From Psammoneis japonica (lineage: Eukaryota): a stretch of DNA of 64,000 nucleotides. Position numbers and translations under genes: made by a program. Numbering within the stretch: the stretch's first letter is position 1; the number at the start of each line of letters is the position of its first letter. Positions 1-24,704 of the stretch are shown one piece after another. The stretch covers positions 352,979 through 416,978 of the forward strand of contig QPGO01000008.1 of the NCBI GenBank assembly GCA_008632985.1. The letters are read 5' to 3'. A model generated the notes under the pieces. The model searched no databases. It was not told the origin of the DNA and worked only from the letters and a program-made list of their open reading frames with translations.

Positions 1-940
1 CCTCGTCGACACGAGGGAGTGTCACGGTCAGCGTACGACGTGCAGACGGACAGACTGTACCTCGTAGAGAACAGCTCGTGCTGACTCAGTGGGATGATGT
101 CGAAGACACCTCTGAAGTGACTGACGTGGATAGATCATAGACCGCAGAAGCAGTGAGCCTCTAAAGCTCACAATGTCTTCACAAGACACAGCTCCATTTT
201 CACAGACATGTGCCAGTCTTGCAATTTCTGCAAAATGTCTTTCAACAAACTGCAGCGCCAGTCACTTGACAATGTGCAAGAGGGTTGTGGTGCTGGTCTT
301 CTCACTTGAGCTCCTCAGCTTCAGAAAAAAATGCTGCGCTGCATGATTTGAAGCAAAGTTGATTTGTGATGACACCAACCGTCTCATGGCAACAAGGCAG
401 TTGAAACAGATTGACCCCTTGACATGCTCCAAAGATTCTTGGCTGCATGGCTTTCCCCTTCACTTGTGTGGCTGGGAGTGTGAAAATGGGCACAATGGCT
501 GAGCTCTTGCAGCAGAACAAGGCATGACCTTCTGGGTCTTGGCATGTCAAAAAACAAGATCTGTTGTTGAGAAAGCCAAAAAACAATGCTCAAACATTTG
601 AGTGCTGCTGAGCCAACAGCAGGTTGGGAAACTGAAGAAACAAGAAGAACTTCAGAAAGATTCTTGTCAAGAAAACTTCAGAAAGATTTTTGTCAAGAAG
701 CAGACAAAGTGCAAGTGCTTGATGCAGAAGAAGCCAAGGAGCACTCTGTGGCAGATGACAACAAAACAGGAGAAGAAGAGCCTCTTGGTTTTTGAACTTG
801 GACAGCAGCTGGTCAACATCAAAAGTGCTGTTTGTGGGAACAGGCCATGTGCAATTTTAAAAGCAGGGCAGCACCCAGAAGCAGTCAGCAAAGCATGCAA
901 GTTGCCACAAGAAAATGTTCTACAATGTGCAGCTCAGTGC

Positions 941-1499
941 AGGATCCGAGTGTTGACTCAGCAAATGACCGCTTCGGACTGGATCTCAATTGCAGTGTGC
1001 ATGCAGACAAAAGGTTATTTTGTCACGCCCTTTGTGACATTTGAAGGCTGCAACACGTCGCCGTGATGCATCAACTCTTGTTAGCAGCTGTGTGTTGCAC
1101 AGTTGATCCCAGTCAAGAACCACTGAGAAGTGACAAAACCTTGTGACACTTGGGAGACTCACAGAGCAGAGCATTTGGTGCAAGCTCTGCTCCACACAAG
1201 GGGGGGGTGGGAGAAACCCAAACCCTCCGCAGGGTCCTGCACCAGTGCAGGGGCTCTTCCGGAAATTCAACGGAGCACTGGCACCTCGGGCGTTTTCGAG
1301 AGCCAACCCCCAGTGGCACACCCTTCGGCATTTCGCGACGTTGGGCAGCAACTGGGGAGTGAAGTGAGCACCTCGAATGAAGACACGCCAGACCAAGTTT
1401 TCCCGCACAAAAACCAAAGCCGTCAAAGGTGTTGTGCTGCGTTGCAATCCCAGACCTCGTCTTGTCGACTCCCGAGGCCGAATGAGACGGGTCGAGCTC
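941..1499 (-). repeat. Split direct repeat B2 (contains a 113-bp insertion at 993-1105)
   Basis: Aligns by eye to 1768-2212 from aggatccgag to gggtcgagctc. Confidence 0.95.
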
Positions 1500-1523
1500 T
1501 GGTCCCAGGGTGTGGTGGGTGGG

Positions 1524-1770
1524 TAAAAAGAAGAATGCATTTCCGAGCTTGAGTGATCCAGTCACGATGATCAGGGTTCCTGTTCCAACAAAGCTGGAAA
1601 AGTGAGAGAAAAGAAAACCGAAGTTTGACCGGTCACAGTCAGAAGACCAGACTGAGTCATCTTGAGTCGGAAGTGCCCCACTTCCGTCGCGGATCCAGCG
1701 AGAGGTCATGGTCATCGAGCGAGGTCGGTTTGAGTCAGTCCGTCTCCATCTAAACTTGGGTGCGAGGAGG
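1524..1770 (-). repeat. Split direct repeat A2 (247 bp)
   Basis: Ungapped match to 9984-10230 (taaaaagaagaatgc...gggtgcgaggagg), offset 8460. Confidence 0.95.
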
Positions 1771-2212
1771 ATCCGAGCACTGACTCAGCAAACGACCGCT
1801 TCGGACTGGACCTCAATTGATCCTAGTCAAGAACCACTGAGAAGCAACAAAACCTTGTGACACTTAGGAGACTCACAGAGCAGAGCATTCGGCACAAGCT
1901 CTGCTCCACACAAGGGGGGGTGGGAGAAACCCAAACCCTCCGCAGGGTCCTGCACCAGTGCAGGGGCTCTTCCGGAAATTCAACGGAGCACTGGTGCCTC
2001 GGGCGTTTTCGAGAGCCAACCCCTGGCAGCACACCCTTCGGCATTTCGCGACGTTGGGCAGCGACCAGGGAGCAAAGTGAGCACCTCGAACGAAGACATG
2101 CCAGACCAAGTTTTCCCGCACGAAAACCGAAGCCGTTGAAGGTGTTGTGCTGCGTTGTAATCCCAGACCTTGTCTCATCGACTCCCGAGGCCGAATGAGA
2201 CGGGTCGAGCTC
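1768..2212 (-). repeat. Split direct repeat B1 (445 bp)
   Basis: Match to 941-1499. Confidence 0.95.
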
Positions 2213-2332
2213 CAATCCCCCCCGATGAGAATCCTGGGCAGTGGCCACCAAAAATGTCGATCCGGAGAGCAGGAAGCTGGAAGACTGTTCTCCGGGGACC
2301 CAACGTTGCCAAGGGCTCGCGACCGTCCCGAG

Positions 2333-3991
2333 TCACATGGCCTTAGTGTGACGCAGGAATGATGGCAAAAGAAGGGCAATGTTGGCACAGTGCTGGCGCA
2401 TTTTGTGCGTGGGTCGTGCCGCACCTGATCTTTCCTTCTTCTTCCAATGGTTGACAACGTCAATGTCATCTTCCGACACCTTCTGAGCAATGGCACGCGA
2501 GTCCGAACCCCGTCTGAACGAACGACTCACATCACACTTGTCCTGCACATCAGAGAACGAGGTGATGTCCACTGCGAACAGGCTTGGGTGGTCCTCACAA
2601 ATGTCTCCCAAGACTTCATGCAAGAAAACGTTGAGCTCTTTTGTAGATGAGACCTCTCCCGCCACATTTGATGTCGCTGGTCCACGCGTGCGCCGATGAT
2701 CCCAGTGTAATGAGACCACCGTTTCGACCCAAAAATGAAGGTTGACACCTGAGCTGGTGACATTGACACTGGGGAGGAGGTGCTGCCGCTCCCCATGCTC
2801 TCCCTTGACTCGGCCCAAAAGAGGGACGACAACATAATCCGCATGTCTTGGGAGGTGTCTGACAAGAGCCCCCAAGTCCACAAGTGGGCCTTCGGGACCC
2901 CGAAGAGACAAGATGCAACCAGCCGCAAAGTGCAATCCGCGTGCAAGGCAAATAAATCTCTCCGCCTCTCCTGGGGCTCGGAGGGCCCTCTCCTTGACCC
3001 GAGGCAACAGATGTTGCATGACGTCGACCGACATCGCTCTGTCAGGCCTCCAGTCTTGGCCCATCCGTCTTTTGCATCCGGTCATGAATCGCTGGAACCA
3101 CAGAGAAGCACACGGGTCTTCGCATGTGCGCAGATGCTGTTTGCCTTCCAAATCCCCCAATGCCAAAGCTCGCGAATTAGCCTCCGCCGATGCGCGTGCC
3201 TGGTTGGAGCAAGCAGTGCGCAATTTTCGGATCGTGTCAAACTGAGTGTACAATTCCGAGTGTTTTCCCGCCGCCGTCGAAGCCAAGACGATCTGCACAG
3301 CGACTTCATGTCCACAGTGATCACAGGGCGGGAGAGGACCCGGCTCGAGGTAAGGCCCCGTTAGGCCCAGACGCTCAGACAAGGCTGGGCCCCTCCCAAC
3401 TCTCGACGCGTTTGCTTCGACTGTTGTCGATTCCCTGCTCCAAAACGCGTCCAAAATCACTCTTCGAATGCACGCTAGAGCAACCTCGTCTTGAGGTGAT
3501 GAAGGCAAGGCCTCCCTCTGGTGAAGCTTGTGAAATGCACAGGTGTCACACTCAAAGGCAACCACAAGATGATCCCCTGTGCGAGCCCGTACAAACTTGT
3601 TTTTGTCTTGAGGCTTCCGACACCAAGCATTGTCGTCCAGCCTTGGGCGGTTCCCCCCGAGAGATTGCGCATTGTCGTTTTGAGGGTCGTCCTCCAGAGT
3701 CCCCCCCAGATGGAAAGTCACGCTTTCTCTCGAAGTGTGGCACCCTGGACACCATGCCTTCCGACATGCCGGCCAGATTCCCACACTGTGCACAAAATTT
3801 GCGCAAAACATTCCTTTCGTCCACCGCAGCATCCGGCCACACTCGACGCAGGGACCGCTCCATTGCATGCATTTTTGGGGTTCCCCGAAGCTGCCAAGGG
3901 CTGCAGGAGACAAACGGAAAAAGAAGGCCAGTTGGCAAGGGCTCGAACATGTCACCTTTCCAGAACAACCTTGATCCAGCCGGGACAGCAA
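2333..3991 (-). pseudogene. Tyrosine recombinase of the retroelement; expected catalytic Tyr replaced by Cys
   Basis: Motifs LSLRGPEG, SRSFRRGSDSRA and NHWKK, plus MRQHCAN where the nucleophile Tyr is expected (codon TGT). Overlaps the 3' end of pol in another frame, as is usual for DIRS-order elements. True start uncertain. Confidence 0.85.
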
Positions 3992-6900
3992 ACACTGGGT
4001 CCGCCGCCTTGTGCAACTGTTTCTGCCACTCCGGAGTCATCAAACGCGGGCAGATGAATGCATGGAACGATGTCTGGCGCTTGATCCTTGCGATCCGGAG
4101 CTCTTCTAGGGCCGCTCTCGCCGCGGCTGGAGGTGGGGCCCAGACCCAAGTGCCCGATCTGAAACGGGGCATTTCGACAGCTTTGCAGGCTGGGCAGCTC
4201 CACCCCGCAATGTCGTGACCCTTCTGACACCAATCCAAGGGGGTCAGCAGTTCTGGAGCTGGAGTTCCAGCCCAAGATTGAACCCACGCAAAGAGAGCAG
4301 CCGACCGAGTTGTGGCTCCGAGATGGAGAGGGACAAACGAAAGCATCTTGGCTCCGTTCATGACACCCTTGGTCAAGACTCCCCTAGAAACTCCGTCTGC
4401 ACCCTGAGCTGTCATCCGTCCCCCTGAGACATGCACGAGATGTGGCCCAATCCCACACTCAGCCTCCAAAGTTTTCAAGCGAATGACCTGCTCAAGCAGC
4501 AGAGGGCTGGACGAGGTGCCCTTGCACCAAGCCATTTCAGCAACTGAGTTGTCCGTAAAAAAGAACAAACACGCGCCGGTCAATTCCCCCTGCTCCCCAA
4601 GTTCTTGGATGGCGTCCACCGTGTTGGATGGCTCTTTCCAGTTGGAGGAGTTCCCCAGTTCATCATCGCCCCACACACCGATCCAAAAGACAATGGTTCC
4701 GTCCGCTGCTTCCAGGGAGGTCCCAAGGCCTTTTCCAGATGCATCGCCAAAGCCACAGAGGACAGTGACAATCTTTGAGGACCTGAAGACAACCGCAGAA
4801 GGGGTCGGAGACTCCTTGACGCGGGACACAGCAGTCAAATCCATGAACAAACGTGGGACCGCCGTGACCTGCGGAGGGGGGGGTTGATCCCTTAGACCCT
4901 CAGCAACCTCTGACGGGTCAAGGCCCTGCTTCTCAGCGAGGTGGTGAATCCAGCTTGCGAACTCTTTCGCAGTCATCGCCCAACCATCCTTCTTTCGATT
5001 TGGTCACCAGGAGTCGAGGGTCAAATGGACTCCTTTGAGGAATGGTGTTAGAAAGGGGCAAGTCATTGCAAGGTGGACTAGAAACCCCCTCTTCTGCTCC
5101 AGATCCTCAAAGTCAAATGTGGGAAGGAAGCCCGCCGAATGCCCGGCACAAAAACCTGGCAGTTCTGCGATGACACCCTTGGCTTTGTCCCATTTGGCCT
5201 GGGAAACTGACTGGGTGACATCCCCATCAACAACTCGGAAAATGGTGCCAGCCCAGGCTCCGGTCTCAACCTGCAAGGGGGGGCGCACCTTCCGGGCAGC
5301 ATTCTGCAGTCCAAGACACTGCAACCGCGAGGCCATTTGGTGAGCAACTTGCCAAGCGGATTCCTCACTAGCCCCCATTCCACGCAAGTCATCAACGAAT
5401 GTTTTAATGTCGCCAGCAATTTCCTTGTGATGAGAATTCCACTTCATCACGAATGGTTTCTCCGTCTGGAAGTTGGGATCCCCTGGCAAGTTTAGGAGCA
5501 GCTTGTCGCATCCCATGATGTTGGAGACTCGGTTTGGATCGCCTCTGGCAATCTCATCGGCCCAATAAAATGCCCGCACCACCAAGCAAGGGCTGGGCCG
5601 CATCCCCACAAACAGACGGTTCCAACGCTCGAACCAGAGCGTGCCCGTCGAGGTCGACTCCTGGGATGCAAGATGTGGTTTGAGAGGCATCAAGTCGATC
5701 CCCGCATGTGGTCGAATGTTGGGATCCATGAAGAAGTTTAAAAACATGTCGCCCAGGTCGAGATCCACGGAAAAGGCAGCATGAGTCATGCACCCCAGAA
5801 CCGACGCAGGAGTGGGCAAGAAAAAAGAGGGTGCCCAGAGGGCATCATTTGACCCCGAAGAGGTCCCGTTACAAACCATTCGTACGTCTTCAACGATTTC
5901 CACCAAACGACCATTCTGGGGTTCCACACGGACGGTTTTTGGGACCCAAAAATGGTCGGTTGGACTGACCACCCTCCCACGATGGACCCAAAAATAATCG
6001 GTTGGACCAACCACCCTCCCACGATGGATGTAACCTTGGTCTCGGACCTTTTGCATCTTGTCCACCATCCTAAGAATCTTGTGCTCGGCCTTTGACAAAT
6101 GTCTGGATCCCATCTCGAGCCCCCACCCGCTGTTCCGGAGTGGGCCACTGCCAGAACAAAAGAGAAGAACCTCGGTCCCAACTCCACCAGGAGCTGTCCA
6201 ACACTTGCGCTGATGCCTCAGCCCCAAGGTGTGTGTCTAGAAGCAAGGGTGGGAGTGGAGGGTGGCGGTGAACCCCCCCCTGAAGACGCCCGGTAGCGTC
6301 CCCAAAACGCCGGCATTGTGTCGCCAGCATGGCGACCCAAGTCGGACCACATTCCCGGTGCAGATGGCCTGGAAAGGACTGAAGGGTCCTTCGCCACCAC
6401 CATGGGTGCGCCAAGTCCCAAAGGGCTGGCAAAACCTTGCCAAATCCCGGGAAAAGCAAAGTGATCCTCTCATCCCACAACCGGAAAGGAGGGGCCGCCG
6501 CATCCCCCTTTGCAGCTTTCGCCGTCATGAGGGATGCGTCGATCCAAGTGTGGGGTAAATGGCGCCTGAGAGTCGGTGGCCACGTTCCGGCTGGGTGGAC
6601 CGGGACCCCAACCTCCGTGTTGTCACACACCACGCCCCCAGGTTGTGACGAATCCCGGGGCGTGTGATCAACAAATGCCTCCACAAAAAGTGTGAGGAGA
6701 TTCAACGGAACAAGAGGAAATCCCCGCTCGAAAGCCCGATGCACCTGAGGCATTTGGAAACGCAGGGGAAAATCCCAGGCTGCCAATGTCTCATCCACAG
6801 ACAGTGTGCGGGTGACCCAACCTGTCAGCGACCAATGCGATGGGCACACGACTGGTCAGGTCAAAAACTGTGGGTTGAGATGGTCGCCCTCATTGTAAAA

Positions 6901-7437
6901 TTCCCCACTCGGGTGTTGTGGCGATGGCGACCCAGGTGGCTTGTAGTCGATGATGTGCCCAATGGACCGTCGCAGGCCTCCATCAAAGACCGGTGCAGGA
7001 ACCCCCCGCCAGAACAGTGCAGTCCGAAAGGAAGTGACACCGCCCACCACCGCATGTGCAATGTCCCGCCGCTGCAACTGGTGCAAACCCAGAAGACTGC
7101 GCCGCGAAACCGCTCCCACAGGGATCACAATCAAAGATCCCGACCGCATTGCATGAGCTGCGGACTCAAGGAACGAGGGTGGGCCCGACACGAACACAAC
7201 ATCAACCCGCCTGGCCAGTTGTTCCACACTTGCCCACGAGACCCGTGCCAAGGAGGCGTTCAACTGGTTCTGGAACAGCTCCGCTGATGGAGAACCCCAG
7301 TGGGACCTGGCAATGTCGTCGCAGCAGCAACAAACAGCAGGCCATTCCCTTGGTCTCAAGGACAAGAGCCAGATTGGGGGACCAGAGGCGAGAATCAAGC
7401 AAGCTCCCTGAAAACAGAAGGCTTTTCTGCCCCGCAT
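3552..7437 (-). pseudogene. pol: DNMT-like N-terminus, reverse transcriptase and RNase H; two in-frame TGA stops and one frameshift
   Basis: ORFs 6856-7437 and 6070-6849 share a frame (TGA at 6856-6858). Frameshift near 6100. RT motifs DLDLGDMFLNF, GMRPSP, TFVDDLR. TGA at 5004-5006 is in frame with 3552-4976, which carries RNase H motifs GFGDASGKG, SSNWKE, FTDNSV, ADGVSRG. Confidence 0.88.
5942..6025. repeat. 42-bp in-frame tandem duplication inside RT
   Basis: ggacccaaaaatggtcggttggactgaccaccctcccacgat / ggacccaaaaataatcggttggaccaaccaccctcccacgat. Confidence 0.95.
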
Positions 7438-7509
7438 GATGTGCCTTGGGTTGTTCGGCCTGTCGAACGAGACCTGGTGCTCCCCTGCATCCTCCGTTCC
7501 CCATGAATT

Positions 7510-9567
7510 TCACTTCTTGCTCTCCAGAGCCTCAAGCCGCCGAGTCAGGTCCTTAATCTCCGTTCGCAATTTGCCCAGATCGACGTGCGCCGAGTCGCCT
7601 CGGGCCTGGGCTGACTTCGCCTCTGAGCTGGCGTTCTTGGCTTTCTCTGTTGGTGTCAGTGCCAAAGATTGCAAATCCGTTGCCACCTCGAATCCTGAGT
7701 TTGCAGCCAGGAACTTGACGTGTTCCGACGCCATAGAAGGGTGGTCGGCAAATCCTAGAGACGTGCACTCTGCCACAACATCGTGGGTCTGAAACACCGC
7801 CCACAAAGTCTTGCTGCACACTGCATCTGGGTCCGTCCCGGAAATGGAGGTAAAAACCCCAGAGCACGCCTTGTGGATGTCCTCGAAAATGCGGTGAGTC
7901 AATTTGGCAGTCAAGGACCACGCTTGCTTCTTGGAGAACTTGCTCAGGTCGGTGAGTGATGCACAAGTGGAGTCTATAAACTGAATCAGCGCCCAAAGAA
8001 ATGCCACCAATTTCGACAATGCGTCCCGGACCACCTGACTTTCAAATGTTCCCGGTCTGATGCGTTGGTTGATGTCTTCCATGATGTCGCTCTCTGTCGC
8101 GGTGATCTTCCCCTCAATGAAGTGCTTTGTTCCGACATTCCCCGAAGACCAGTGTTCGTGGGTCTCGATTTTATCCAAGCAAGAGGGGTGCAAACCCAAG
8201 GTCTGAGACGATTTTGCAGATCCTGAGTCGAAGATCCGAGGCATGCGACATTGGAAGCCCGCCAGAGTTCGCGTGTCTTCCTCGGTGGCGATGTTTGTGC
8301 TCATTTGCTTGGCCCACTGAGACAAAAAGTGATGCAGAGCGGTGGGCTCGATCCCCTTAATCCGGTCCAAGAGCAAGACGACATCAGCCAAGCACCCGCG
8401 TGCCCTCAAGGGGAAATGCTGTGTCATCCAAGCTTGACACTCCTCGCAGGTTGATGCGCCAACCCCCGAGAACTTGATGGCAGACTTGTCTGACTTTGCA
8501 CGCAACTCACTCACAGCGCGGTCTGGGCGTGTGAGGCATGCTTCCACGGACCCTTGATCGAATGAAGCGCCGGGAGGTGCAAACCCCGAACCAAACTGGG
8601 ACTTGATCGACCTGACCTTTGAGGTGAGCTGCGCACAAACACGAAGCATGTCATTCTTCATGTTTTCCAGATCCGCGCGGCTGGCCGTCGATCCCATCCG
8701 ATCTTGCACGTGTTGGAACTTCTCATTGAAAGTTCTCACCAGATTGTTGGATTGGTTTCGCCAACCCGTCTCCACTTGTGTGACACACTCGACCAGGTCC
8801 AGAGATTGGGTTCCGGTTTCCCGGGATGAAACGTTCGCCAGCGTGCCCCAAAGAGCAGGGGCGAGTGGCGCCTCATCAAACCCCTGGGTCGGTTCCCCGA
8901 GAGACGCGTCGAGTTGATCCAGCTTCCGGCTTAGAATCTCAATCACAGACTCCACAGCGTGGAATCGCCTGCCAGCTTTGTCGCCAAAGTCGGCCAGTGC
9001 TTCCCCGGCTTGCCTCAACCCATCCTCGGTCAATTGGACCACACGGGCCAACGCGGACGGACTTTCATTTGCCGCCAGGAACTGCGCCGGGGTGGGGAGC
9101 ATTTGTTTCTCGTGCGGCGTGAACCTCTCCAGAACGGCATCCTCTTGAAGGGTTGACGGTTCCGGCCACTGCTTCCGAGCCGGTGTCTTGAACTCGGCCG
9201 CCCTTTCATGCTCCCTCAGAGTGGGTTCGACCTCGTCCTTGGTGGAAAAGGGCTCACCATTGCCCAGAACCAAGAATTTTTGCCGCCAACCGGCCAGTGC
9301 ATCCGACTCGGCTTCCCACTTGACCAACACTCCACCAGACATGTTTTCGCCATTTAAGATGGGTTGGCAAAAACCCGTGTCCGGGGACTTGAGGATTGCT
9401 GCCACACCCAACGCCAGAACACTCATCTTGCTGCCCTCATGCCTCACATTGCACTTGCTTGCCTTCTTGAGACAGAAGGTGGCTCCTCCACCCTTGATCC
9501 CCAAGCACCGAGGTGCCCCAATGGCCTCCAGCCAGGTGATTCGATGACGAGGCACATGCGAGGACAA
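7510..9567 (-). CDS. ORF1 (gag-like) of the YR retrotransposon, 685 aa
   Basis: Long ORF directly upstream of pol inside the split repeats; Cys/His N-terminal cluster and C-terminal coiled coil (LRTEIKDLTRRLEALE). Confidence 0.75.
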   Translation of the reverse strand: MSSHVPRHRITWLEAIGAPRCLGIKGGGATFCLKKASKCNVRHEGSKMSVLALGVAAILKSPDTGFCQPILNGENMSGGVLVKWEAESDALAGWRQKFLVLGNGEPFSTKDEVEPTLREHERAAEFKTPARKQWPEPSTLQEDAVLERFTPHEKQMLPTPAQFLAANESPSALARVVQLTEDGLRQAGEALADFGDKAGRRFHAVESVIEILSRKLDQLDASLGEPTQGFDEAPLAPALWGTLANVSSRETGTQSLDLVECVTQVETGWRNQSNNLVRTFNEKFQHVQDRMGSTASRADLENMKNDMLRVCAQLTSKVRSIKSQFGSGFAPPGASFDQGSVEACLTRPDRAVSELRAKSDKSAIKFSGVGASTCEECQAWMTQHFPLRARGCLADVVLLLDRIKGIEPTALHHFLSQWAKQMSTNIATEEDTRTLAGFQCRMPRIFDSGSAKSSQTLGLHPSCLDKIETHEHWSSGNVGTKHFIEGKITATESDIMEDINQRIRPGTFESQVVRDALSKLVAFLWALIQFIDSTCASLTDLSKFSKKQAWSLTAKLTHRIFEDIHKACSGVFTSISGTDPDAVCSKTLWAVFQTHDVVAECTSLGFADHPSMASEHVKFLAANSGFEVATDLQSLALTPTEKAKNASSEAKSAQARGDSAHVDLGKLRTEIKDLTRRLEALESKK

Positions 9568-9983
9568 AGAAGACGCACCTTCCCTCTCCGACTCGACCGT
9601 GCCTCCGATGTCACCCGCTAAATCCCGCCCAAAGAAACCAACCCGAGACTAGTGGGTTTCCCTCTGAACCGGGCGGGATGCGTCTCCTTCCAAAAAAATG
9701 GTTCCTGGAGGGTGGGAAATGACTTCCCCTGGCTCCGCTCTGTCAATGTCCGACTGGGGATGACCACAACCCCCCGAAATGTCATCGCTTGTGCCTCGAG
9801 GATTTAAGCCCTCGTGACCCCCCCCTGACATGCAGCCCCAGAAGGGCGAGCCGGAGGAGAGGGAGCCGCCGGAGAGCTCGACAAGAAAGGCGAGACAACA
9901 TCCAACTCCAGTTGACGAGCCAAATCAACGAACGCATCATCCGAGATACCCGAGGCAAAGAAATCCAACATGACAAGGGAGAC

Positions 9984-10230
9984 TAAAAAGAAGAATGCTT
10001 TTCCGAGCTTGAGTGATCCAGTCACGATGATCAGGGTTCCTGTTCCAACAAAGCTGGAAAAGTGAGAGAAAAGAAAACCGAAGTTTGGCCGGTCACAGTC
10101 AGAAGACTAGACCGAGTCATCTTGAGTCGGAAGTGCCCCACTTCCGTCGCGGATCCAGCGAGAGGTCACAGTCATTGAGCGAGGTTGGTTTGAGTCAGTC
10201 CGTCTCCATCTAAACTTGGGTGCGAGGAGG
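9984..10230 (-). repeat. Split direct repeat A1 (5' terminus of the element)
   Basis: Match to 1524-1770. Confidence 0.95.
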
Positions 10231-11479
10231 TTGTCAACAACTGGTGGCTGTTGTCCAGCCAGACTCCCAAAGAAAGGCTCAGAAACACTTCTTGTGCATT
10301 TTTCTCCCTTGCAAGGGTTGCACTGCAGACAACATCAATGTGTCCACCAGCTGTGGTGCAGCTGGCAATCATCAACTTGTGTTTGCAGCTCAAATGAAGG
10401 GTTTTTGCAACACAGGTTTCCTCCAAAAACTGTCACAGCTTTGAAGCATCGCCATCTGCACAGAGAGAAGTGATTTGCAACAAGCCCAGAAGTTGTGTTG
10501 TTGAAGATTTGATGGGCACAAAGCTGTTGCTTTGCTGTTTTTCACACAACCACTGCGTTGTTGTTTGTGTCGGTTGGATGTTTGACTCTGGACACCACAA
10601 TGTGTTCCCTGTGAAAAGTTTGGCATGTTAGAGAGCTGATGTTTGGGTGACACACAAGATGAAGTGTCTTGCATGATGGACAATCTGTCTCAAAAGGCTG
10701 TGTTTGTTTTCAAGCTTTATTTTTCAAAGTTGGTTGGAAGGATTTGAAAATGTAAAACATGCAACTTGTGAGCTGGCAGCACACTGACACATTTGGTTTG
10801 CACACAACTGTCTGGCACCAGCCCCACTTGCTCTGTCAAAGTCAGGTCCCAAACAATGTGCTTCATCATTGCTTTCTTCTTTGTCTTCCAATTCCATCAG
10901 CTGGTCATTGTGTGCTTTGTTGCCTGGAAAGTCTTTCACACAACCAGTGGCTTTGACCAAATGCTTTGTGCAAGTCTCTTGCTTGTGACACACTCTTTCT
11001 TTAATCTTGCAGCTGGCCTCTTCAAAGCAGGCTTCACATTGCTGCCACAACTGCCAAGCACCTTGTCAGGATTTTGCAGCATTTTTAGATGCTCATCTGC
11101 TGCAAAGCTGTGCTTGCACAAGGCGACATTCTTTCCAAGAACAACCATGAGTGCCAACTCCAGTTTTGGTTCTTCCACACCAACAACTTCAACAGCAAAG
11201 GAGCACAAGCTGGTCTTTGAGAAACACTCCAGCAGGTGTTCACATTCTTGCAGGGCACCTGTGAGTTTTGAGCTTGGTGCCTTTCTGTGCTTCTGGATTG
11301 AGAGATCAGCTGGGACAGTCAGCAGCACCCATGTCAAGTGCCTTGTGCTTTGAAGAAAATTGAGTGTTTTCTTTTGTTGTCGTTGGGGCATGGTTGCTGG
11401 CACTTGGCATGCCCCAGTCTGCTGCTCAAGAGTGCTGGTGCAAAGCAAGGTGAGCACTTCTTACACTTGCCCAGGAGAA

Positions 11480-12600
11480 AGAAATGCACCCAATGTGGGA
11501 TTTCTTGATTTGCTGCATTGGAGCAAATGGCAGTGAGGCCACAGCATCTTTTGGATGTTGGCAAAGAGTGCTGCCACAGCAGCAGCAACTCTGTCTTCAG
11601 CAACAGCCTCAAGCCAGAATTTCTGCACTTTTTACTGACACAAATGTTGGTGCTGAAACCCACTTGATGGCACTTGCAAGAAATCCACACTGGTGCAAAC
11701 ACAACACAGCTGCACATGCTGTGCTGGCTGTTGTTCATTTTCTGGTGCTGTGCCGGAGTCACAGACCAAAACAAGGTGTCCCCAACCCTTGTTTGTGCAT
11801 TTGGCATTTTCACAAACTCTAAAGCATTGGCTTCAACTGGGCCACAATGTGTCATTGTGCAACTCTTGCTGTGCAGCCACTTGCCCACTCAACTTTTTTC
11901 CACCTGCATCCAGTGTGGCAAAGATGGAGAGCAGGGGGCAACAACACCACACTGTTGCAATGATGTTTTGCCTCAGCAGCTTGCACGCACACTGTTGTGC
12001 TCCCAAGAATCAGAGAATTTGAGGTGACTTCATGCTGTCATCTTCATCTGCAAGCAGCAATGACAGTGCAAATGAAGCCATGCCAACAATGGATTTCTTC
12101 CTCCCAAAGCAAGCAGGAGAAAAGAGCCCAAGTGTGGTTGGCATTGAGACAGACAGACAAGCCGGCAAAAAAATCAGAGCCAGTCAGTCCTGCTGCCTGT
12201 GACATGCTGTCAACGAGTTGTTGCATTGAGTGCTTGTGATGTGTGTGGCTTTCTTTTCAACTCTGGCAACAAAAAACATGCAACTGCATTTGAAAGAGTG
12301 CCAGAAGCAAGAGTGCAGTTCTTTGCAGCATGGAAGACAACCACAGTGGGTTGGACAGACATGGACACTTGGTGCCGCTAGACTCTGCACTTTGGCTCAC
12401 ACCATTGGCTTGAGCACCGCATGGTCCTGGCAGTGTGCAGGGCAATGGGTGAAACAGGTGGATGAGCTTGAGGACCTGGTTGCCTTGCACAAAGATGTGT
12501 TGTTTCACCTTGCAATTCTCACAGGCTGCATGGCACTGCACTCCCTTTGCCTGTGCATCATTTTGGCATGAACATCTGAGCCTTTGTCAGCTTTTTTCAG
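11480..12600 (+). pseudogene. Heavily decayed transposase relic, possibly Plavaka (CACTA-like) family
   Basis: Frame-broken fragments QARISALFTDTNV, EIHTG and LLFIFW..GVTDQNK..TLVCAFGIFTNSKA recall Plavaka motifs (recognised from memory only). Limits approximate. Confidence 0.35.
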
Positions 12601-12739
12601 ATGCTGCTGACTTTGGATGGAATTTCTTTTTTGCTCAGACAGGAAGAACACATCAGCGGCAGGCTGCCTCTGGTGCAGAACATCTCTTCACCAAACACAG
12701 CAATTTTCTCATTTGGGAAATCTGTGCTGAGAGTTGAGC

Positions 12740-13910
12740 AAACATTGGCTGTCTCATTGAGAGAAATGATTTTGACAGATTGTCACACTGCCACAGGTGC
12801 CCAGCTTGCAAGGGAAATGAAAAATGCAGAGACAACAGCAGCACTGGGTTGGGCAAACAAAAGCTCATGCCCTGTGAGCAGCGCATCAATGCCACACCAC
12901 CTTTGCAGGTTTTCTTGACCCACTGACAACTGCTGGAAGGCAAGGCATGCTGCAAAGCTTGACATCATGGCACTGCAATGACAGGCACATTTTGAGGTTT
13001 GTGGAAGACATTTTCAAAGAGAAGCCCAGAAGCATGCAGAAAGCAGTGTTCTGGAGCTTGGTGATGCAAAAAAAAGCAGCAAATGAGTCTCCTTCAGGGA
13101 CCACAATTTTGCCTGTTGCAGCTTCCAGGGAGTGTGTGCACTGAAGATGTTGCAACTTGCTTCAAAAACAGGTGCAAAGCAATTGCAGGCATCACAGCAG
13201 TGGTTCCACACATTTCCTGATTTTTCAACATCACCATGCATCACCTCTTGACATTTCATTGAGAATCAACCAACCGTGGCTCCAAAGCATGTGGCGCTGG
13301 GATGGAAATCTAGCAAATGTGCTCTGGGAATGTTGACCATCTTGTCATGGCAAATGATTTGACACATTGTTGTGCTGCCATGGGTGGCCAGCTTTCCAGG
13401 AAAACAAAACTTGTGAAAATGATGTGGATGCCAGTGGGGTGGGAAATGAAAGCTCACACCCTGCATGCAAGCAACATGTCCATGCACAGTTTCTTGCAGG
13501 TTTTCTTGACCTGCTGACAACAGCTTGAAGGCTGGACATGCTGTGGAGCTTGGCAGTGTGATGCTGCCACAACAAACACCTTTTGGCTTTTGCAGAAGTT
13601 GTCTCTAAAGTTCAAAGAAGCATGTGAAAGCAACATCCTGGTGTGCTCAGTGTCGTGGGGAAATTGGCAAATGAATCTCCTTGAAAAAACCCATGGCTTT
13701 GCCCACTGCAGTTTCTGGTTTGTGCACAGAACATGTTGCATCTCATTCCAAGAACATTCAAGGCCATTGCAGGTGCCATTGCCTGCCCCTGCATGTTCTG
13801 ATTTTTCCACATTGCCAGGTGGCACTGCTTGACGTTTCATTGAGAGTTGCCCGACCATGGCTTCAAAATGTGATGGAACAGAAATCTGACTCATGTGCTC
13901 TGGGAACACA
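12740..13910. repeat. Diverged tandem duplication, period ~590 bp
   Basis: Anchor caggttttcttgacc..ctgacaac at ~12906 and ~13497; tttttc.aca and gtgctctgggaa also recur at a similar offset. Confidence 0.65.
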
Positions 13911-14179
13911 TCTCCGTGCTGCCACAGAAAGCAAGGATGCCATGGGCTCCAGCCTCTTTGCTCTGGCTTTGCTTTTTTTTGGCTCTTTCAGAGACCACCA
14001 AAAATGGCAACTGCCATCTCAGATGAAGTGACATGGCAAAAGATCAACTCCACCCTCAACACCATTTGCCACACCCTCTGACATCTGGAACAGCACATGG
14101 CAAACCCTTTGAATGAATCTTGATTGACTTGCACACATGTTCTTCCAGCACAATCCAAAGAGATGAAAGACATTGAAGG

Positions 14180-15200
14180 TTGCAGAGCTGAGCAGAAGAC
14201 CACCCAGAGAATCACAAAGCTGCTGTGGTGAGCAATGAAACATTGAAGAATGTGACTTCTAAAGCCTCCACTCTGTTCTCACCTGCAAGATCCCTTGCCA
14301 AAAAGATTGGAAAGGTTGCTGGATGAAATTGTTGCATGAGCGCAGTGTGCAAAAGCTTTGATTTGGGCACCCAACTGAAAGACCTGACAAGAGGGGAGCA
14401 AAAGGAAAACTCTCAACTTGCAAGAAATCCAAAAACTGGAGGGTTGCACTTCCGTGATGCAGCTGCATTGGGTTTGAGGATGAAGAACTGTCAAAAAACA
14501 GAAACAAGAGACCACCCCAAATCACACAGTTGCTGCAGTGAGACGAAAGACATGAAAGGTCACAGAGCTGAGAAACAGACACAGAAGACCACCCAGGATC
14601 ATAAAGTTGCTGTGGTGCACAATTGGATGTTGCAGAGTGTGACTTCCAAAGCCTCCATTTTGTTCTCACCCATGAGATCCCCAGCTAAAAAGATTGGAGA
14701 GGTTGCTGGGTGAAATTGTTGCATGAGGAAGGCATGCAGAAGCTTTCAATTTGGGCACCCAACTGAACGACCTGACAAGAGGGGAGCAAAAGGGAAACTC
14801 TTGACTTGCAAGAAATCCAAAAACTGAAAGGTTGCACTCCCTTGATGCAGCTGTGTTGGGTTTGACGATGAAGAGCTGTCAAGAAACAGACACAGGAAAC
14901 CACCCTGAATGATCACACAGTTGCTGCAGCAAGCAATGAAATGTTGAAGAGCATGCAATGGCCTTCAAGGCCTCTGCACTGTTCTTGCCTGTAAGATCCC
15001 TGGCCAAAAAGATCAGTGGGACAGTTGAGTGAAATTTTTGCATGAGAGTGGTGCGTGGAAGCTTTCAATCAGGGTGTCTGACTGGACAACCCAACAAGAG
15101 GGGAGCAAAAGGGAACTCTTGACATGCAAAAAACCCAAAACAAAATGACTGGACTCCCGTGATGCAGCTGCAGTGGGATCAAGGATGAAAAGAGTGCTTC
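14180..15200. repeat. Three diverged ~320-390 bp units
   Basis: Anchor caagaggggagcaaaagg at ~14388, ~14777 and ~15095, with shared flanking blocks. Confidence 0.8.
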
Positions 15201-15504
15201 TTGTGTGGACAGTTGCAGAAAAAGCACAGCACTTGACAGAGCAGATGGACTCCTCCAGTCCATGGGATGTTGCTGGGTGCCAAGAACACACCACAGAAAA
15301 TGAGGCACATCACTTGGCCAAGGCCAAAAGGCAAATTGACAGGACCTCACTGGGTGGTCAACTCAGGACAGCTGATGGGCTGATTGAAGACACTGCAGAA
15401 GGCTCCTGAAAAAGCACATCCCTTGGCTTTGCGGACAATCAAGGCAGTGGGCATTGCCAGGTGTCAATTGCAGGACATCTGATCAGCTTGTCAATGGTGC
15501 CACA

Positions 15505-16350
15505 GAGCTCAAGGTGCAGCCAATGAAAAGGGATTGCAAAAAATGCTGTGTCCAAGTGTGGACATTCCCTTGGCTCTCTCTGTGGAAGTGGCTGATGTCA
15601 GTGATGGAGTTGGATCGGATTCGGATTTGGCGCAGCAGTCGCAGGACTTGGACTTGCACTCAGTGCAGCAGCAGGAAAGGTGGAGCAGGTGGGCCAAGCT
15701 GATTTGGAAATGAGGAGCAGGGAATGGTGTTGGGTTGCTTGTGTGGCAGGATTGGGCTTGGTGCAATGTCGTCAGATCCAACCAATGAACCCTCATCAAT
15801 CACAAGGGTTGCTGTGTGGTGCAAGAGAGCTCAAGGTGCAGCCAACGAAAAGGGATTGCTAAAAAATGCTACGTCCAAGTGCGGACATTCCCTTGGCTCT
15901 CTTTGTCCCAAGCAGAACTGGCCAATGTCAGTGATGGAGTTGGATCGGATTCGGATTCAGCGCAACAGTGGGAGCACTTTGATTCGGACTTGGCGCAGTG
16001 GTGCAAGAGGCAGAGCAGGTGGGCCAATGGCCGATTCGAAATTGGTGAGCAGGGGATGGTGTCGGATTGACTGTGCGGCAGGATCGGGCTTGGCACGCTG
16101 TCGTCATGTCCAACCAATGAACCCTCATCAAATTGAGGGTTGCTGTGTGGGACAAGAGAGCTCAAGGTGCAGCCAACGAAAAGGGATTGCTAAAAAAATG
16201 CTACGTCCAAGTGTGGACATTCCCTTGGCTCTCTCTGTCCCAAGCAGAAGTGATCGGATTCGGATTCGGTGTAGTAGTGGGAGGACTTGGATTCGGACTC
16301 AGTACAATAGTGCGAGAGGCGGAGCAGGTGGGCCAAGCCGATTCGGAATT
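15505..16350. repeat. Three tandem ~325-bp units (last one partial) at the edge of the TpA-depleted domain
   Basis: Anchor gagctcaaggtgcagccaa at ~15505, ~15827 and ~16158. Confidence 0.9.
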
Positions 16351-16549
16351 GATGTAGGATAAAGTGTAGATACTTTTTTGGGCCCCAGGGTTGACGGAGC
16401 CATTGGATCGGGGTAGTTTTAGGCGACGGGGTCCCTTTCAAACTTTGACAACGACAACAAGAGCAAAACACGCGTCAGTCTTTACCAAAAACTTCCCTTT
16501 TTTATACTCACAAATTTGGAATTTACGTACATCGATCGAGTGTGCAGTT

Positions 16550-16870
16550 ATTGGCTACAACGGAGCTGCATTTGGACTAGAGCTCGGCGCTGGGCTGCTA
16601 CTTGGAGTCGTACTGGGCGTGTCACTCGAGCAGGACTACGACTCGGTTGTCGTGTCGTGTCGTGTGAGTCTGTACATCATTCTGAGCGGGACTCGCTCTC
16701 GGTGGATGGAAAGGCATTGGCGTTAGAGCACTGTGCTCCAAGCTGGGAGCAGGGCTTGTACTCGGTGTTCTGTTTGGAGCTTCACTCGGAGCAGGACAGC
16801 TTGATGGATTGTCCATTGTCGACAACTACAATCGCACGGATATCGCCGCCTATCATTGTGTTGGCGAAGT
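16550..16870 (-). pseudogene. Fragment encoding Pro/Ser-rich PSxxPS repeats typical of diatom secreted proteins
   Basis: PSEAPNRTPSTSPAPS and DTPSTTPSSSPAPSSSP lie in different frames; no clean gene model. Confidence 0.3.
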
Positions 16871-18333
16871 TCTGAGCAGTTTCAGTTTTGGTTCTTGAAA
16901 ACTGGCTCGCTCGCCGAAAAAAGAGAAACAGCGATGCGCTGCGAAACTTATTCAGCACTGTATGTACAGAAGAGAACATAGCACAGGATCACTGATGAAA
17001 TAATATATATAGATGTTTAAATGTAAATTTACTTTTCGTATCTATCATATTTAATGAAATATAAATTATTTTGCTCTAGAATATATACATAAGTATTAGT
17101 TTTCAAAGAGCCCGCTGTCTCGGATCTGGAAGCCCGGAAGCCACTCGATTTCGAAGCTCTCAAATAGAAAATGGCTGGCTGCTGGCTGGGTCGCCTGTCG
17201 CCTGCCTCCATGTCGCCTGTCGCCAACCGCCGACGATGGTGACCTTGAGCAAGTAATCGTTTGCTCCAAACCTTCATTAGCTTTCGTACACCCACTGCAC
17301 TTTGTTTCGCGTGCTATGTGGAATTCAGCCTCACGCTCTTGAATCAAAATTTTTGCCTTTTCGTTTCTATTCCCACAATGATATGATGTTGCCGGGCTGG
17401 CAATGGCAACTAGCGTGCAAAAATAATGACCCTCGTCGTGCCGACAGCCGACAGTATATTGTGACAACGACCATCAAATTGGTGCTTATGTCTAGTCTGG
17501 TCTGCTCCATGGGCAATGCGGTGCTGTAGATGGCTAGAGTTGTCGTGGTGAATTCGTCTTGGACGCTTGAACTCACAATATTTCCGTGGCGGACGTTGCA
17601 ACGAGACTACACATTGTCTATCCACCATGTTTCGTGAAGGGTTATCAAGACCAGGGTGGAGACTGGAGTTCATCGTTGTGTTTGTGGAAATAAGAATGCC
17701 AAGTTGGTTCTTTTGCTGTCAGTTGTCGTGAGGACGGTGAGGAGGAACAGAGCGTTGAAAGACGTGGGACGTGGCCAGTCACTTGACCTTTGCCGATTCC
17801 ATTTACATTTGTTCTCAGCCGGCCATACTAAGGAGGCTAACACAAACAGAGCGAAGGTACGAATGATATTATTGAACAAGGGGGGAGATAGATTTCAACC
17901 AAAGCAAGTGGTTTGCTGTTCTGGGTGTTCGCTTGTTGTTTCGTAAGGTTTTCACTCGTACGCAGCTATGCTCACAAACTGTACTTATAGCTCAAATCTT
18001 TTCTCGTTTCAGAATAGATACTTTCCCAAAAATAATGGCGCTCTACTTACACGCATTCAATTTTGCACGCAACGCCTTCTCGTGATGTCATTTTTGTGAT
18101 CTAAATTGGCTATTTTGTGGTGCCCGCTTTTAGCTACGGTACCGTACAGTGGTTTGCTCAACTACGACGTCCGACCAGCAAAAAGATGGCGCTGCTTTGC
18201 TCCTCCTGTTGCTCTAGATTCTTCTCTAGCTAGAGCTAGCTAGTCAAAATACCGGTATAATTTATACTTTCCAATTTATTTTCTTGTGTAGTGAAAACGG
18301 TGTCGTTGCAATAGTCGTAGGATTCGAACACAT

Positions 18334-21300
18334 CTATTCGGTCGAAGCAGCCATTTCTGAGAGCCTCTTTTCTTCCTCCCTCTTCGCCTGTTTGGCCTCT
18401 TTCCTTCTCTTTTTGTTTCTTGCGCGTCTCTGTCTCCTGTTTTGTTTTATCCGTTCTTGTTGTTCATCTAAGGGTTCTTGTCTCTTGAGTACATATGAAG
18501 CTGTGTCGTCCTCCTCCATTGGACTTGCTCCCACGGTCGGTTCCACTTGTCTTAAAACCTTGTTGGCATCTGAAGAAGTGTCTTCCTTATCTTTTTGACT
18601 TAATGCCGCTGTCGGATCCACTTTCCTTTTGATCTTGAATATGCTGTCGATGATATTTCGCTGATCAAATAACGTCCAAAAGATCTCTCTGGCTGTCTGT
18701 TTCGCGTTGTCGTCTCGGCGATTCAACAACTCCCGATCCCTTTCATCAAGCTTGACATAGGTAAGACGAGGCTGAGTGTCCATAAGGATGCCATTCTCTG
18801 CAAAATATGCCACTGCGTGTTTGACTTTCCTGCCAACCTCGTCCCAAAAATCAATGATCACAAGATACACGCCCTCTCCTTTTAGAAGCAATTCCAGTTT
18901 ACTTTGGTTTTCGTTGTGGCGTAACTTTTGCGCTTCGAATCCTTTACTCTCAAAAAACGGTATGAATTTCTTGGCCGATACCCATTCGCGTCTTGGAGCT
19001 AATTCGTTTCGAATCGCCAGCTTAGAAATATCTTGTTTCGCTCTCTCCTTTTTGTCCGGAATCATGCGCTTCAGAATACGAAATGAAGTGTCCGGAATGC
19101 AATATCCGACCGGCACGCGCCTTTTGTCGTAACAAAATCCGTGTTCTTTAGCCTCGGCTAGGGGCATAATTCTAGCACCCACAACCGCGTTATTTCTTCT
19201 GTTCACACGTTCTTTTCTCGACGGTTTGGCAGTTTCCTTGACAGGAGCAACTACCTCAGAGTCCCCGGTCGCAGTAGCAGACGGATCCTCCAAGCGTACG
19301 CCGCTCAAGTCACCAATTGTAGCTGTTTCGGTATCCTCAGTAGAGACATTGGAGGCTCCTGCCTCGGCGGCAGAGTAGCCCACAGTGCTAGCTCCGCGGT
19401 CGCCAACTGTCGTGCAGTATCCGGGCGCATTGACTTCTCCTTCCTCTTCTTCATCAGAGTCATAGAGAAACCGCTGCGATTTATCGTCACCAGAAGATTC
19501 ATTGCCTATGTCTGTATTCAGCAAATGATCTGAAACTGATTTGCAGCAGATTGCGTCAACAACAATTACGGTCGTGCAAGTAGCAACAACACGAGATATT
19601 CTCTTACCTATAATTCGATTGCGTTTTCTTGCGGGACTTTCTCCGTTCAAGGAGGCCATTGCATCGGATATGTTTGCAGCTTGTGACGATCTAGAGGCAA
19701 CACTGTGCACTTGTATCGCTGATTCTGAAATGGCAGAATCTTTGGTGTTGGGCTTGCAGCGGTCATCGACTTCTTCGTTCCAATCCTCGCTCGGGTCTTG
19801 CGTTGGTAATGAGTCCGTGACGGTCACAGCGGTTTCATTTTGTGGACAACATTCACTGTTCTTGCCCTTCGGCATTTCCGAATCCAGGGTAAAAACTGAT
19901 TCTTTCGAAGAAATGTCTGAGAATTTGCTGGTTGGATCCATTGACCCATCGGAGGTAACGTTCTTAGTCGTTCTAGCGGGTGCCTTCGAAGCAAGGCCAC
20001 ACCCGTCGGACGCTCCTCCAATGAACGAGCTACAGGTACCTAATCCACTAGATTCACGGTCGCCGGCTTTCGCGAAAGGCGTGGGTGCCTTGGCCTGCTC
20101 CTCTCCCTCTTCATGGGAGATAACAAGCAGCCCTTTATTGTCGCAAGAAGATCCATTGTCTGCGTCTATTTGAAACAAAGGAGAAGGCACTGGCAAGGTA
20201 TGAAGGAGGTCGTGGCAACAACAATCAATTCGCACAGGCAGCAACAAAAAGCGAGTCGATTTTCTTACCTTGAACTTGGTCGCGGCTTCTTGCCGAACAT
20301 GGTCCCTGTAAGTTGGTCATCTCATCAGTTCCGTTCGCAACTTGGGGTACTCCAGAGGCAAGATTGCACACTCGTGTGACTGATGCGGCTATAACGGTGC
20401 TATCAACGACTTCTTTATTTGCTTCTTCTTCTCCCTTCACCTCGAACGAATCTGCATCGTACACACTCAATCGAGACATGGAACTGTCATTTCTTATAAG
20501 ATTTTTCCCCGTGTGGTCGTAGTCGTTTGCCGTATCTTCGGTTGGCTCTGCATTGTAATGGGAAAAAGGAGGTATGAAATGTTTGGTTGGCCCTTCCTTG
20601 TTGTGGGCAACAGGAAACTGACGCGGTGAAGCGGATGTCTTCTTGAGGGCGTCCCGTTCTTGTCCATCAGCAGTGGGCGTGCTTCCTATACCCATGGTTG
20701 CACCAATCAAAAAAGTGGCAGAAGGAGATTTCCCACTTCGCACTTCGGATCCACTGGCAACTTGAGTTGTGTCCTCCCTTGATGTTGATCCATTGGCGAC
20801 AACTTCCACTGTCGTAGCAGCCCGGGTGTTGATAGATGCGCCATCTACTAAAGGATAGCAGATTCAAGACAAAAATTGACAAGAATGAGCATTGGGTAAA
20901 GAAAAAACACAAGATGCAAACAAATCAAACCAATGTCTTACCGCGAACATTTGAAACAGTGTGCCCTGACAAGCCACTGTTTTCAGGACTCTTATTTGCA
21001 CCTAACATTGAATCTGCGGTGGCTGCAAAGACGTTTTCATTTGTGGCAGGTGTCGCTTTTGCGGAAGGACCACTCCGTTTGGAGCTGGATTTGTCGAGGC
21101 CAGCATCCACTGTCGACGCAGTGCGTACTCTATCAAGTGATGCGGAATTTGCTTTACTGCGGCTGGTAGACCTGACACCTCTGTTGGGCGGAGCTTTGGA
21201 CGAAATGCAGTTGACTTTGTTTTGTTCAGCTTCTTGGTTTTCCTTTTCGTTCGTCTCGCAAACACCCGGAATGGGATAGAGTGGCCGATGCGTTTTCTTC

Positions 21301-24484: not shown

Positions 24485-24580
24485 CAGCACAGTGTGTTGG
24501 TGTTTTTCAGCGAAACTGTGGCATTAGTTGAAAAGGCATAGCCCCAGTTGTGGTTCGAAAAATGGGAACGAGGAAGAACA

Positions 24581-24704
24581 GAAAGTCGGTAAATTTGCGC
24601 AAATCTGGCAAATTGGTGGGCACCTGCACAGTCGCCTGAGTGCAGAAAGTCAGCAAATTTACGCAAATTTAGCAAGTTATTTTGCACTGTCACAGTCGCC
24701 TGAG
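24581..24704. repeat. Two diverged 60-bp units, period 64, between the convergent SET and dioxygenase ORFs
   Basis: gaaagtcggtaaatttgcgcaaatctggcaa...acagtcgcctgag / gaaagtcagcaaatttacgcaaatttagcaa...acagtcgcctgag. Confidence 0.85.

Follow-up and report, generated by a model that had tools for sequence, protein, structure and literature searches.

In fungi, repeat-induced point mutation (RIP) changes C to T mainly at CpA; it creates TpA and lowers GC content, and a gain of TpA is its standard index. Hypermutation of another kind is described in a 2026 preprint on the alga Bigelowiella natans, in which integrated viral DNA undergoes TpA to TpG/CpA change: mutation-accumulation lines yielded 231 mutations in two viral regions, of which 230 replaced A by G or T by C, all of them at TpA, and TpA mutation ran at about 1000 times the background (bioRxiv 10.64898/2026.01.13.699255). 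The same preprint reports that TpA-poor coding sequences are enriched in reverse transcriptase and DDE domains, and it proposes an ADAT2-like deaminase. Here we analyze a stretch of 64,000 nucleotides from the diatom Psammoneis japonica (contig QPGO01000008.1, positions 352,979 to 416,978; hereafter the window), in which positions 941-10230 form one mobile element on the minus strand. Its layout is that of a tyrosine-recombinase retrotransposon with split direct repeats. The differences between its paired repeats are probably explained by hypermutation that erased TA dinucleotides on both strands of the integrated element, followed by a slower decay of CpG.

Differences between the paired repeats

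The layout of split direct repeats is given in PMC4157794 as A1 - genes - B1 A2 B2, where A2 is identical to A1 and B2 to B1. On its own strand, the P. japonica element reads A (10230-9977), about 7.7 kb of open reading frames (ORFs), B (2213-1768), A (1770-1517) and B (1500-941). This arrangement matches the A1 - coding region - B1 A2 B2 pattern of the DIRS order (Ngaro/PAT-like elements), in which the recombinase ORF (here 4036-2336) precedes the internal repeats. We label the copies by their position in the window, all on the minus strand. B1 is the terminal B repeat at the 3′ end of the element (941-1500, made up of 941-992 and 1100-1499/1500), with 92.5% identity to 1814-2212 and 90% to 1768-1819. 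B2 is the internal B repeat (1768-2213), which shares a 3-nt overlap (AGG) with the internal A repeat, A1 (1517/1524-1770). A1 is 96.8% identical to 9984-10230 in the terminal A repeat, A2 (9977/9984-10230), at the 5′ end. An earlier sequence-only reading of this DNA had located B1 and B2 correctly, with no mention of a 107-nt insert found only in B1 (993-1099).

The alignment of B1 with B2 spans 451 columns and shows 34 differing sites, all of them transitions and none a transversion, as well as one indel in a run of G. Columns belonging to pyrimidine-purine (YpR) dinucleotides hold 31 of the 34 differing sites, although they make up only about 43% of the alignment (binomial P=5e-9). The YpR pairs comprise 22 that are CG in both copies, eight that are CG in one copy and TG or CA in the other, ten that are TG in one and CA in the other (TG/CA swaps) and three that are TA against TG or CA; no pair is TA in both, and 20 are TG/TG and 34 CA/CA. 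The sequence-only reading had counted the same ten, three and eight sites, with TA kept at 1824, 1865 and 2158, and had described change as almost confined to YpR sites; an exact recount reproduced all of this. Its account of the remainder, two T/C changes, the indel and no transversions, was right except that it lacked a third difference outside YpR. The two are T/C at 953/1780 and 984/1811, and the third is G/A at 1102/1816, which lies at the edge of the insert and depends on the alignment. There is also a possible eleventh swap at the end of the B repeat (1500-1502 TGG versus 2213-2215 CAA).

The mirror-image exchange, AC for GT, served as a control and occurs once between B1 and B2, against ten TG/CA swaps. 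At these ten sites B1 carries seven TG and three CA, and B2 three TG and seven CA. Because TG and CA outcomes are both present in each B copy, both strands were hit, as had been proposed. The A repeats were said to show the same pattern, which holds with two exceptions not listed at the time. A1 and A2 differ at eight of 247 columns, by seven transitions and one transversion (1539 A/T); six of the eight lie in YpR, including CA at 1648 versus TA at 10108 and one TG/CA swap, and one transition lies outside YpR (1628 A/G).

The sites that did not change calibrate the rates. The 22 intact and eight half-lost CG pairs in the B repeats give a per-copy CG loss of 0.154, at which CG ancestors alone predict 0.36 TG/CA swaps; ten were observed (Poisson P=8e-12). 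A model with both CG and TA ancestors reproduces every pair class, with a per-copy TA loss of q=0.93 (profile interval 0.82-0.98) and about 22 ancestral TAs, and is preferred to a CG-only model with one rate (likelihood ratio 20.6, P=5.6e-6). Counted from the time of identical repeats, the estimated hazards per copy are 2.70 for TA, 0.167 for CG and 0.0058 for other sites. The split repeats can thus serve as an internal clock giving relative rates TA : CG : other of about 460 : 29 : 1, ratios that are relative and come from a single repeat pair. Swaps affect about 13% of TG/CA-type sites and other transitions near 1%, which points to a hypermutable ancestor rather than a slow two-step path. 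On these figures, we also rejected a single-step "dinucleotide inversion" from TG to CA.

Tyrosine codons and stripped tracts

Tyrosine codons have the form TAY. Tyrosine makes up 0.3% of the residues in the element ORFs; the figure is 2.5% for host genes in the window, and 59 homologues have 1.2-4.2%. We examined alignment columns with tyrosine in at least 40% of homologues (50 for the reverse transcriptase (RT)/RNase H-like ORF, 60 for the putative recombinase ORF). The 15 such columns of the RT/RNase H-like ORF (3552-6236, minus strand) now hold two Tyr, six Cys, one His, five Phe and one Trp, while its homologues, in a leave-one-out comparison, kept Tyr in 4-16 of 11-19 columns and had Cys 0-1 times. 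In the inactivated ORF of the putative tyrosine recombinase (2336-4036, minus strand), the 14 columns hold one Tyr, seven His, five Cys and one Asp, so that 12 of them are now His or Cys; the changed columns include three in which every one of the 60 homologues has Tyr. Its homologues kept Tyr in 8-11 of 12-14 columns and never had Cys.

Taken together, the 29 columns hold three Tyr, 11 Cys and eight His, and 19 of the 29 TAY columns are now TGY or CAY codons. Since tyrosine codons of the element turned into cysteine and histidine codons, TA was ancestral and TG or CA derived in both outcomes. This is a direction read from sequence comparison rather than from new mutations. Among the 22 columns that are now Tyr, His or Cys, 19 lost TA (86%), near the 93% estimated from the repeats, and therefore a functional element at insertion suffices for both figures. 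The opposite outcome, which the sequence-only reading had set against its own, was that all swaps derive from CG and that the TA alleles are derived; we found instead that the one-rate CG-only model is rejected and that Tyr codons became Cys and His codons. The base before the codon may influence the product. Purines tend to precede His, and pyrimidines Cys (6:2 versus 3:8; Fisher P=0.07), which fits the flanking-base rule described below but, with such small numbers, is only suggestive.

A protein-guided scan of metagenomes yielded four distant related loci, which we used for composition only. Their observed/expected (o/e) ratio of TpA is 0.65-0.74, compared with 0.13-0.14 in this element. 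Because these relatives have ordinary TpA, TA poverty is not a trait of the element class.

TA loss extends beyond the element. A scan of composition in 500-nt bins revealed three states with sharp borders. Host DNA, the rest of the window, has o/e ratios of 0.98 for CpG, 0.61 for TpA and 1.16 for CA/TG. The element and two other tracts (about 22840-27307 and about 43840-46830) are stripped of TA only (CpG 0.77, TpA 0.14, CA/TG 1.32), and three tracts (1-940, 10231-15615 and about 27310-30060) are stripped of both TA and CG (CpG 0.12, TpA 0.05, CA/TG 1.81). The GC content of TA-stripped tracts is 0.554, versus 0.477 in host DNA. Since the element, stripped of TA only, sits within doubly stripped DNA, TA loss came first and CG loss later. 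A comparison of TGN trinucleotide gains with host DNA was set aside, since reading it would require the composition that the tracts had originally.

Flanking bases distinguish the TAs that survived. The share of YTAR contexts is 17% among the TAs of host DNA and 45% and 53% among surviving TAs, whereas RTAY falls from 29% of host TAs to 7% of survivors (chi-square P=4e-18), and there are no ATAT survivors. The four TA alleles at differing repeat sites (1824, 1865, 2158 and 10108) lie in CTAG, TTAG or GTAA contexts. The preferred target is an adenine that follows T and precedes a pyrimidine, with YTAR the context least hit.

The individual tracts differ in content. The left flank of the element (1-940) is rich in TG and CA, and its loss of TA and CG is strongest from about position 500. 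The right flank (10231-15615) has 0-3 TA and about two CG per 500 nt and contains tandem repeats that differ by TG/CA swaps. Comparisons of tandem repeats in the stripped flank gave 19, 5, 9 and 5 TG/CA swaps versus 2, 0, 3 and 2 AC/GT swaps. Several diverged tandem-repeat families, with units of about 300-590 nt and 66-82% identity, occupy 12764-16354. CG recovers near 15616, and TA only near 16190. The second TA-stripped, CG-keeping tract (22840-27307) and the third (43840-46830) both contain ORFs with 0-1% Tyr and no recognizable domains; one ORF of the second tract (24690-26204, minus strand, 504 aa) has only three uncharacterized homologues, one of them in the diatom Seminavis robusta. 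The tract at 27310-30060 has lost both TA and CG. A strongly purine-skewed kilobase (46001-47000; GC skew 0.39 and AT skew 0.37 on the plus strand) sits at the edge of the third TA-stripped tract. Long intron-free host genes, which encode CPSase, E2F, LMF1, P450 and a lipase, fill most of 16-64 kb. An eRF1 gene (31949-33361, minus strand) has 85-92% identity to diatom sequences, including those of Ditylum, Odontella and Phaeodactylum.

The stop codons TAA and TAG are depleted along with TA. On both strands of the element interior we counted 35 TAA, 30 TAG and 250 TGA. Because TAA and TAG are nearly absent from stripped DNA, positions 1-12000 contain 34 overlapping stop-free frames of at least 120 aa among the six frames, by which gene finders would be misled. 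Searched against Pfam, none of the ORFs in the element and the other stripped tracts matched a family significantly. Loss of TAA and TAG stops and of Tyr codons thus accounts for long spurious ORFs that domain searches miss.

The RT/RNase H-like ORF has 5139 homologues, and the family consensus carries YVDD and FTDNS (FTDNSTAE); in the element the first motif reads FVDD, FTDNS is kept, and there is one in-frame TGA. Two homologues (P0124 and P0131) have weak Pfam RVT_1 matches (E=0.066 and 0.094). A 42-nt tandem duplication in this ORF (5942-6025) encodes HRGRVVGPTDYFWV / HRGRVVSPTDHFWV and has no counterpart in the consensus of 30 homologues. Four sites distinguish the two copies of the duplicated unit, each by a transition, and a Tyr/His codon pair and a TG/CA swap are among these differences. 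The recombinase ORF has 274 homologues, some in the diatom Fragilaria crotonensis, and 60 of them share an SFRRG motif and invariant C-terminal tyrosines. Upstream ORFs, gag-like or unassigned, occupy 6070-9648 on the minus strand in a single frame with two in-frame stops, and a 712-aa part has no tyrosine at all. A PDB profile search gave no match. Language-model look-alikes (Atlas) offer leads only: the cluster nearest the polymerase ORF is 46% RVT_1, and in those nearest the recombinase ORF (0.92-0.94) 18-30% of the members carry Phage_integrase and 78% carry ALOG. Clusters nearest one polymerase homologue (P0122) have, again as leads, Dam in 11-19% or DNA_methylase in 45-64% of members; Pfam finds no methyltransferase-like domain in the element. 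Such a domain separates PAT and DIRS elements, which have it, from Ngaro, which lacks it. A 24-nt B pattern had no match in metagenome or viral contigs, and a protein-guided scan of viral contigs found no relatives of the element.

We aligned contigs of a public sequencing run, X1, to positions 600-10600 at an identity of at least 80%; two further runs, X2 and X3, gave no aligned contigs, and no RNA run was among those listed as containing the sequence. The 107-nt insert in B1 stands out in these data as a piece of a very abundant short repeat. Summed word depth in run X1 reaches about 51,000 in the bin that contains it (934-1267), versus about 137-160 in the single-copy flanks; many contigs have loose ends at 987-1101, and many exit the insert at both sides. 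The insert is flanked by TTG on both sides, and it looks like a short repeat resembling a miniature inverted-repeat transposable element that arrived after the retrotransposon.

Mechanism and competing explanations

In the course of events that we favor, both repeat pairs, A and B, would have consisted of identical copies when the element integrated. A fast A:T to G:C transition at TpA, turning TA into TG or CA, would then have removed about 93% of the TAs in each copy, working best with a pyrimidine after the adenine and worst at YTAR. A slower, ordinary decay of presumably methylated CpG to TG or CA would have removed about 15% of the CGs per copy. Each TG/CA swap would go back to a single TA that mutated on one strand in the first copy and on the other strand in the second. 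Other tracts, probably mobile or foreign, would have been treated likewise and host genes spared. Because stripped tracts are marked and host genes are not, the process behaves like a genome defense against silenced DNA. The data show the pattern and its direction, the relative rates, the flanking-base bias and the confinement to tracts; the timing after insertion, the enzyme and the manner in which tracts are targeted are inferred. The most likely chemistry, also the one proposed for B. natans, is that an enzyme deaminates adenine to hypoxanthine at 5′-TA in DNA, and this enzyme is probably a DNA adenine deaminase.

That mutation followed insertion had been claimed from the sequence alone, and the claim rests on the identity of split repeats described in PMC4157794; a private allele in B2 and an empty site are compatible with it. 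At 1811, all six other covering contigs of run X1 carry the B1 allele, and the B2 allele is private. The empty site is represented by one run X1 contig (word depth 136.9) that joins 940 to 10228 through three shared letters (AGG). These letters are all that the joint shares, and no direct repeat flanks the element ends; a target-site duplication is therefore absent, as in elements of the DIRS order. The contig spans 600-940 and continues from 10228 with three substitutions and two small insertions relative to the window: TG to CA at 810-811, a TG/CA swap outside the element, A instead of G at 825, 24 nt inserted after 885 and an additional A after 10282. It represents either the other haplotype or a paralogue; accordingly, either the insertion is polymorphic or the flank is duplicated.

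Run X1 also shows how the family varies. It contains 1727 contigs with 80-100% identity to 600-10600, 305 of them at 99% or more. Variant places number 290 for A>G, 295 for C>T, 295 for G>A and 262 for T>C, and 38-66 for each type of transversion. Of 1558 variant rows 40 were listed, and the 35 transitions among these were examined. At 17 listed sites all covering contigs, at least four, differ from the window; in 12 of them CG in these contigs stands against TG or CA in the window, and at 8400 this relation is reversed. Such CG-type differences have the ordinary direction of CpG decay. The comparison with other genomic copies that the sequence-only reading had suggested thus covered a few internal sites.

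Several points weigh against the proposed sequence of TpA hypermutation and CpG decay. That B1 and B2 were identical at insertion follows from published descriptions of the element class, not from this family. The A repeats kept two TA/TA sites, with one TA/CA site and one swap, and so lost fewer TAs than the B repeats, from which it follows that the rate of TA loss was not uniform. The TAs kept in A lie in the resistant contexts CTAA and GTAA, but this explanation came afterwards. At 8296-8297, TG in the window stands against CA in all six other contigs. Hits that arose independently should have left both outcomes among them; some changes may have been inherited in common, or the contigs may not be independent of each other. 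Run X1 may itself be the source sample of the assembly, in which case it is not independent proof of the sequence. A CG model with two classes of site, hypermutable and resistant, would fit the B1/B2 pair table equally well. Finally, TA ancestry at the ten swap sites is a collective result, obtained with B1 and B2 as the only copies of B at hand.

The strongest competitor accepts the TpA process but holds that the repeat differences were largely inherited from diverged master copies, perhaps through non-autonomous spread, in which case the pairs would not be dated to this insertion. The shared CA at 8296-8297 suggests such descent, the family is diverse and present in many copies, and the A pair has diverged less than the B pair (3.2% versus 7.5%). 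We nevertheless consider inheritance unlikely. Split direct repeats are described in PMC4157794 as identical pairs; the B2 allele at 1811 is private against six contigs with the B1 allele; the empty-site sequence is present in the same sample; and the agreement between Tyr codon loss (19 of 22) and TA loss in the repeats (0.93) needs nothing more than a functional element at insertion.

Decay of methylated CpG alone would derive all swaps from CG lost on opposite strands and the few TA alleles from CA or TG. It accounts well for the eight CG versus TG/CA sites in the B repeats and for the 12 of 17 listed sites where other copies have CG, and the two-class CG model is compatible with the pair table taken by itself. 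The sequence-only reading had held that TG/CA pairs alone cannot distinguish a TA from a CG ancestor. This stands only in part: unchanged sites calibrate the rate and exclude a single CG rate, which gives 0.36 swaps where ten are seen and 22 CGs are intact in both copies, yet the two-class model fits too. The latter is disfavored only through independent evidence from proteins and composition. The codons that became Cys and His, in 19 of 29 tyrosine columns, were those of Tyr (TAY) and not of arginine, and TpA in the element has fallen to 0.14 of expectation with CpG still at 0.77. CpG decay as the sole cause is thus very improbable, and most TG/CA swaps resolve, as far as these comparisons allow, in favor of TA ancestors.

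Editing of element RNA or single-stranded cDNA by an ADAR- or ADAT-like deaminase before integration is equally improbable. A to G change with a preference for a 5′ U is an ADAR signature, as the B. natans preprint also states (bioRxiv 10.64898/2026.01.13.699255), and on the side where the element adjoins DNA of host-like composition the changes stay within it. Editing of the ADAR type should, however, affect one strand, and we found Cys 11 times and His eight times at the tyrosine columns and both TG and CA in each repeat copy. The flanks, which are not retroelement DNA, and their tandem repeats carry the same swaps, and the B pairs would need independent editing within one molecule. Because editing of RNA or cDNA would hit one strand and leave the flanks untouched, we infer that the changes hit integrated double-stranded DNA.

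Least credible is an artifact of assembly or base calling, in which modified TpA and CpG sites of silenced DNA were misread at random as TG or CA: it would produce TG/CA swaps between truly identical repeats without double mutation, but the stripped flank is present in run X1 contigs with a depth of about 137, only the five changes given above separate the empty-site contig from the window, and 305 run X1 contigs are at least 99% identical to the region, in a run whose library type is not on record and which may be the assembly source. Run X1 contigs at this depth contain 0.80 of sampled words of 12000-21999, and the stripped sequence is genuine.

Comparison with known systems

Among deaminase systems, APOBEC and ADAR editing resembles the P. 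japonica locus in producing deaminase-driven clusters of transitions in retroelements, and the 5′ T or U before an edited A is reminiscent of ADAR. These enzymes act on one RNA or cDNA strand and within metazoans, whereas here both strands and DNA other than retroelements are affected. Decay of methylated CpG has its counterpart in the eight CG versus TG/CA sites and the 12 sites with CG in other copies, at about 29 times the rate of other sites. It leaves the TG/CA swaps, the loss of Tyr codons and the depletion of TpA without explanation, and methylation itself is presumed here.

Fungal RIP is similar in that hypermutation at the DNA level inactivates mobile or repeated DNA, through transitions only, in a dinucleotide context, on both strands and with sharp borders. 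It differs in that TpA is destroyed here (o/e 0.05-0.14) and GC content raised (0.554 versus 0.477 in host DNA), the reverse of the RIP signature. Diatoms encode DNMT4 enzymes related to the RIP factor RID, and methylation of their transposable elements is known, according to PMC9998398; DNMT4 has no link here to the TpA process.

The closest match is B. natans. Change there is also restricted to TpA to TpG/CpA, affects both strands, runs orders of magnitude above background, is limited to foreign or mobile tracts, and is accompanied by TpA depletion and CpA/TpG gain. The TpA rate in the diatom, about 460 times that of other sites per copy, is likewise orders above background, as a relative figure from one repeat pair. 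The preprint reports mutations measured directly in a rhizarian alga, whereas here a fossil record in a diatom is read. The main targets described there are giant-virus and virophage inserts in which many TAs persist (TpA rho 0.45); here they are a retrotransposon and unassigned tracts from which TA has been almost wholly erased (o/e 0.05-0.14). Relative to that description, the diatom locus adds a second, slower layer of CpG decay and a visible flanking preference, with TAY hit and YTAR spared.

A search of the accessible literature found no report of such a process in diatoms, and TpA-targeted A:T to G:C hypermutation has so far been reported once, in the chlorarachniophyte preprint. A larger claim can be put forward tentatively, with the odds somewhat against it: that diatoms have an active genome defense, RIP-like but chemically opposite, in which an adenine deaminase would act at 5′-TA-Y on both strands of silenced mobile DNA, erasing TpA and Tyr codons while neutral sites change by less than 1%, independently of CpG decay and faster. 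Because the same signature was measured in a rhizarian alga, such a defense might be old and widespread in SAR lineages. The diatom case would place the process in stramenopiles and extend it beyond integrated viruses to ordinary transposable elements. The flanking-base preference is a constraint that any candidate deaminase must reproduce, and, if the explanation is true, TG/CA swaps between paired repeats offer a simple test in any genome. The P. japonica locus is best filed, beside B. natans, as a second, independent lineage with TpA-targeted hypermutation of mobile DNA.

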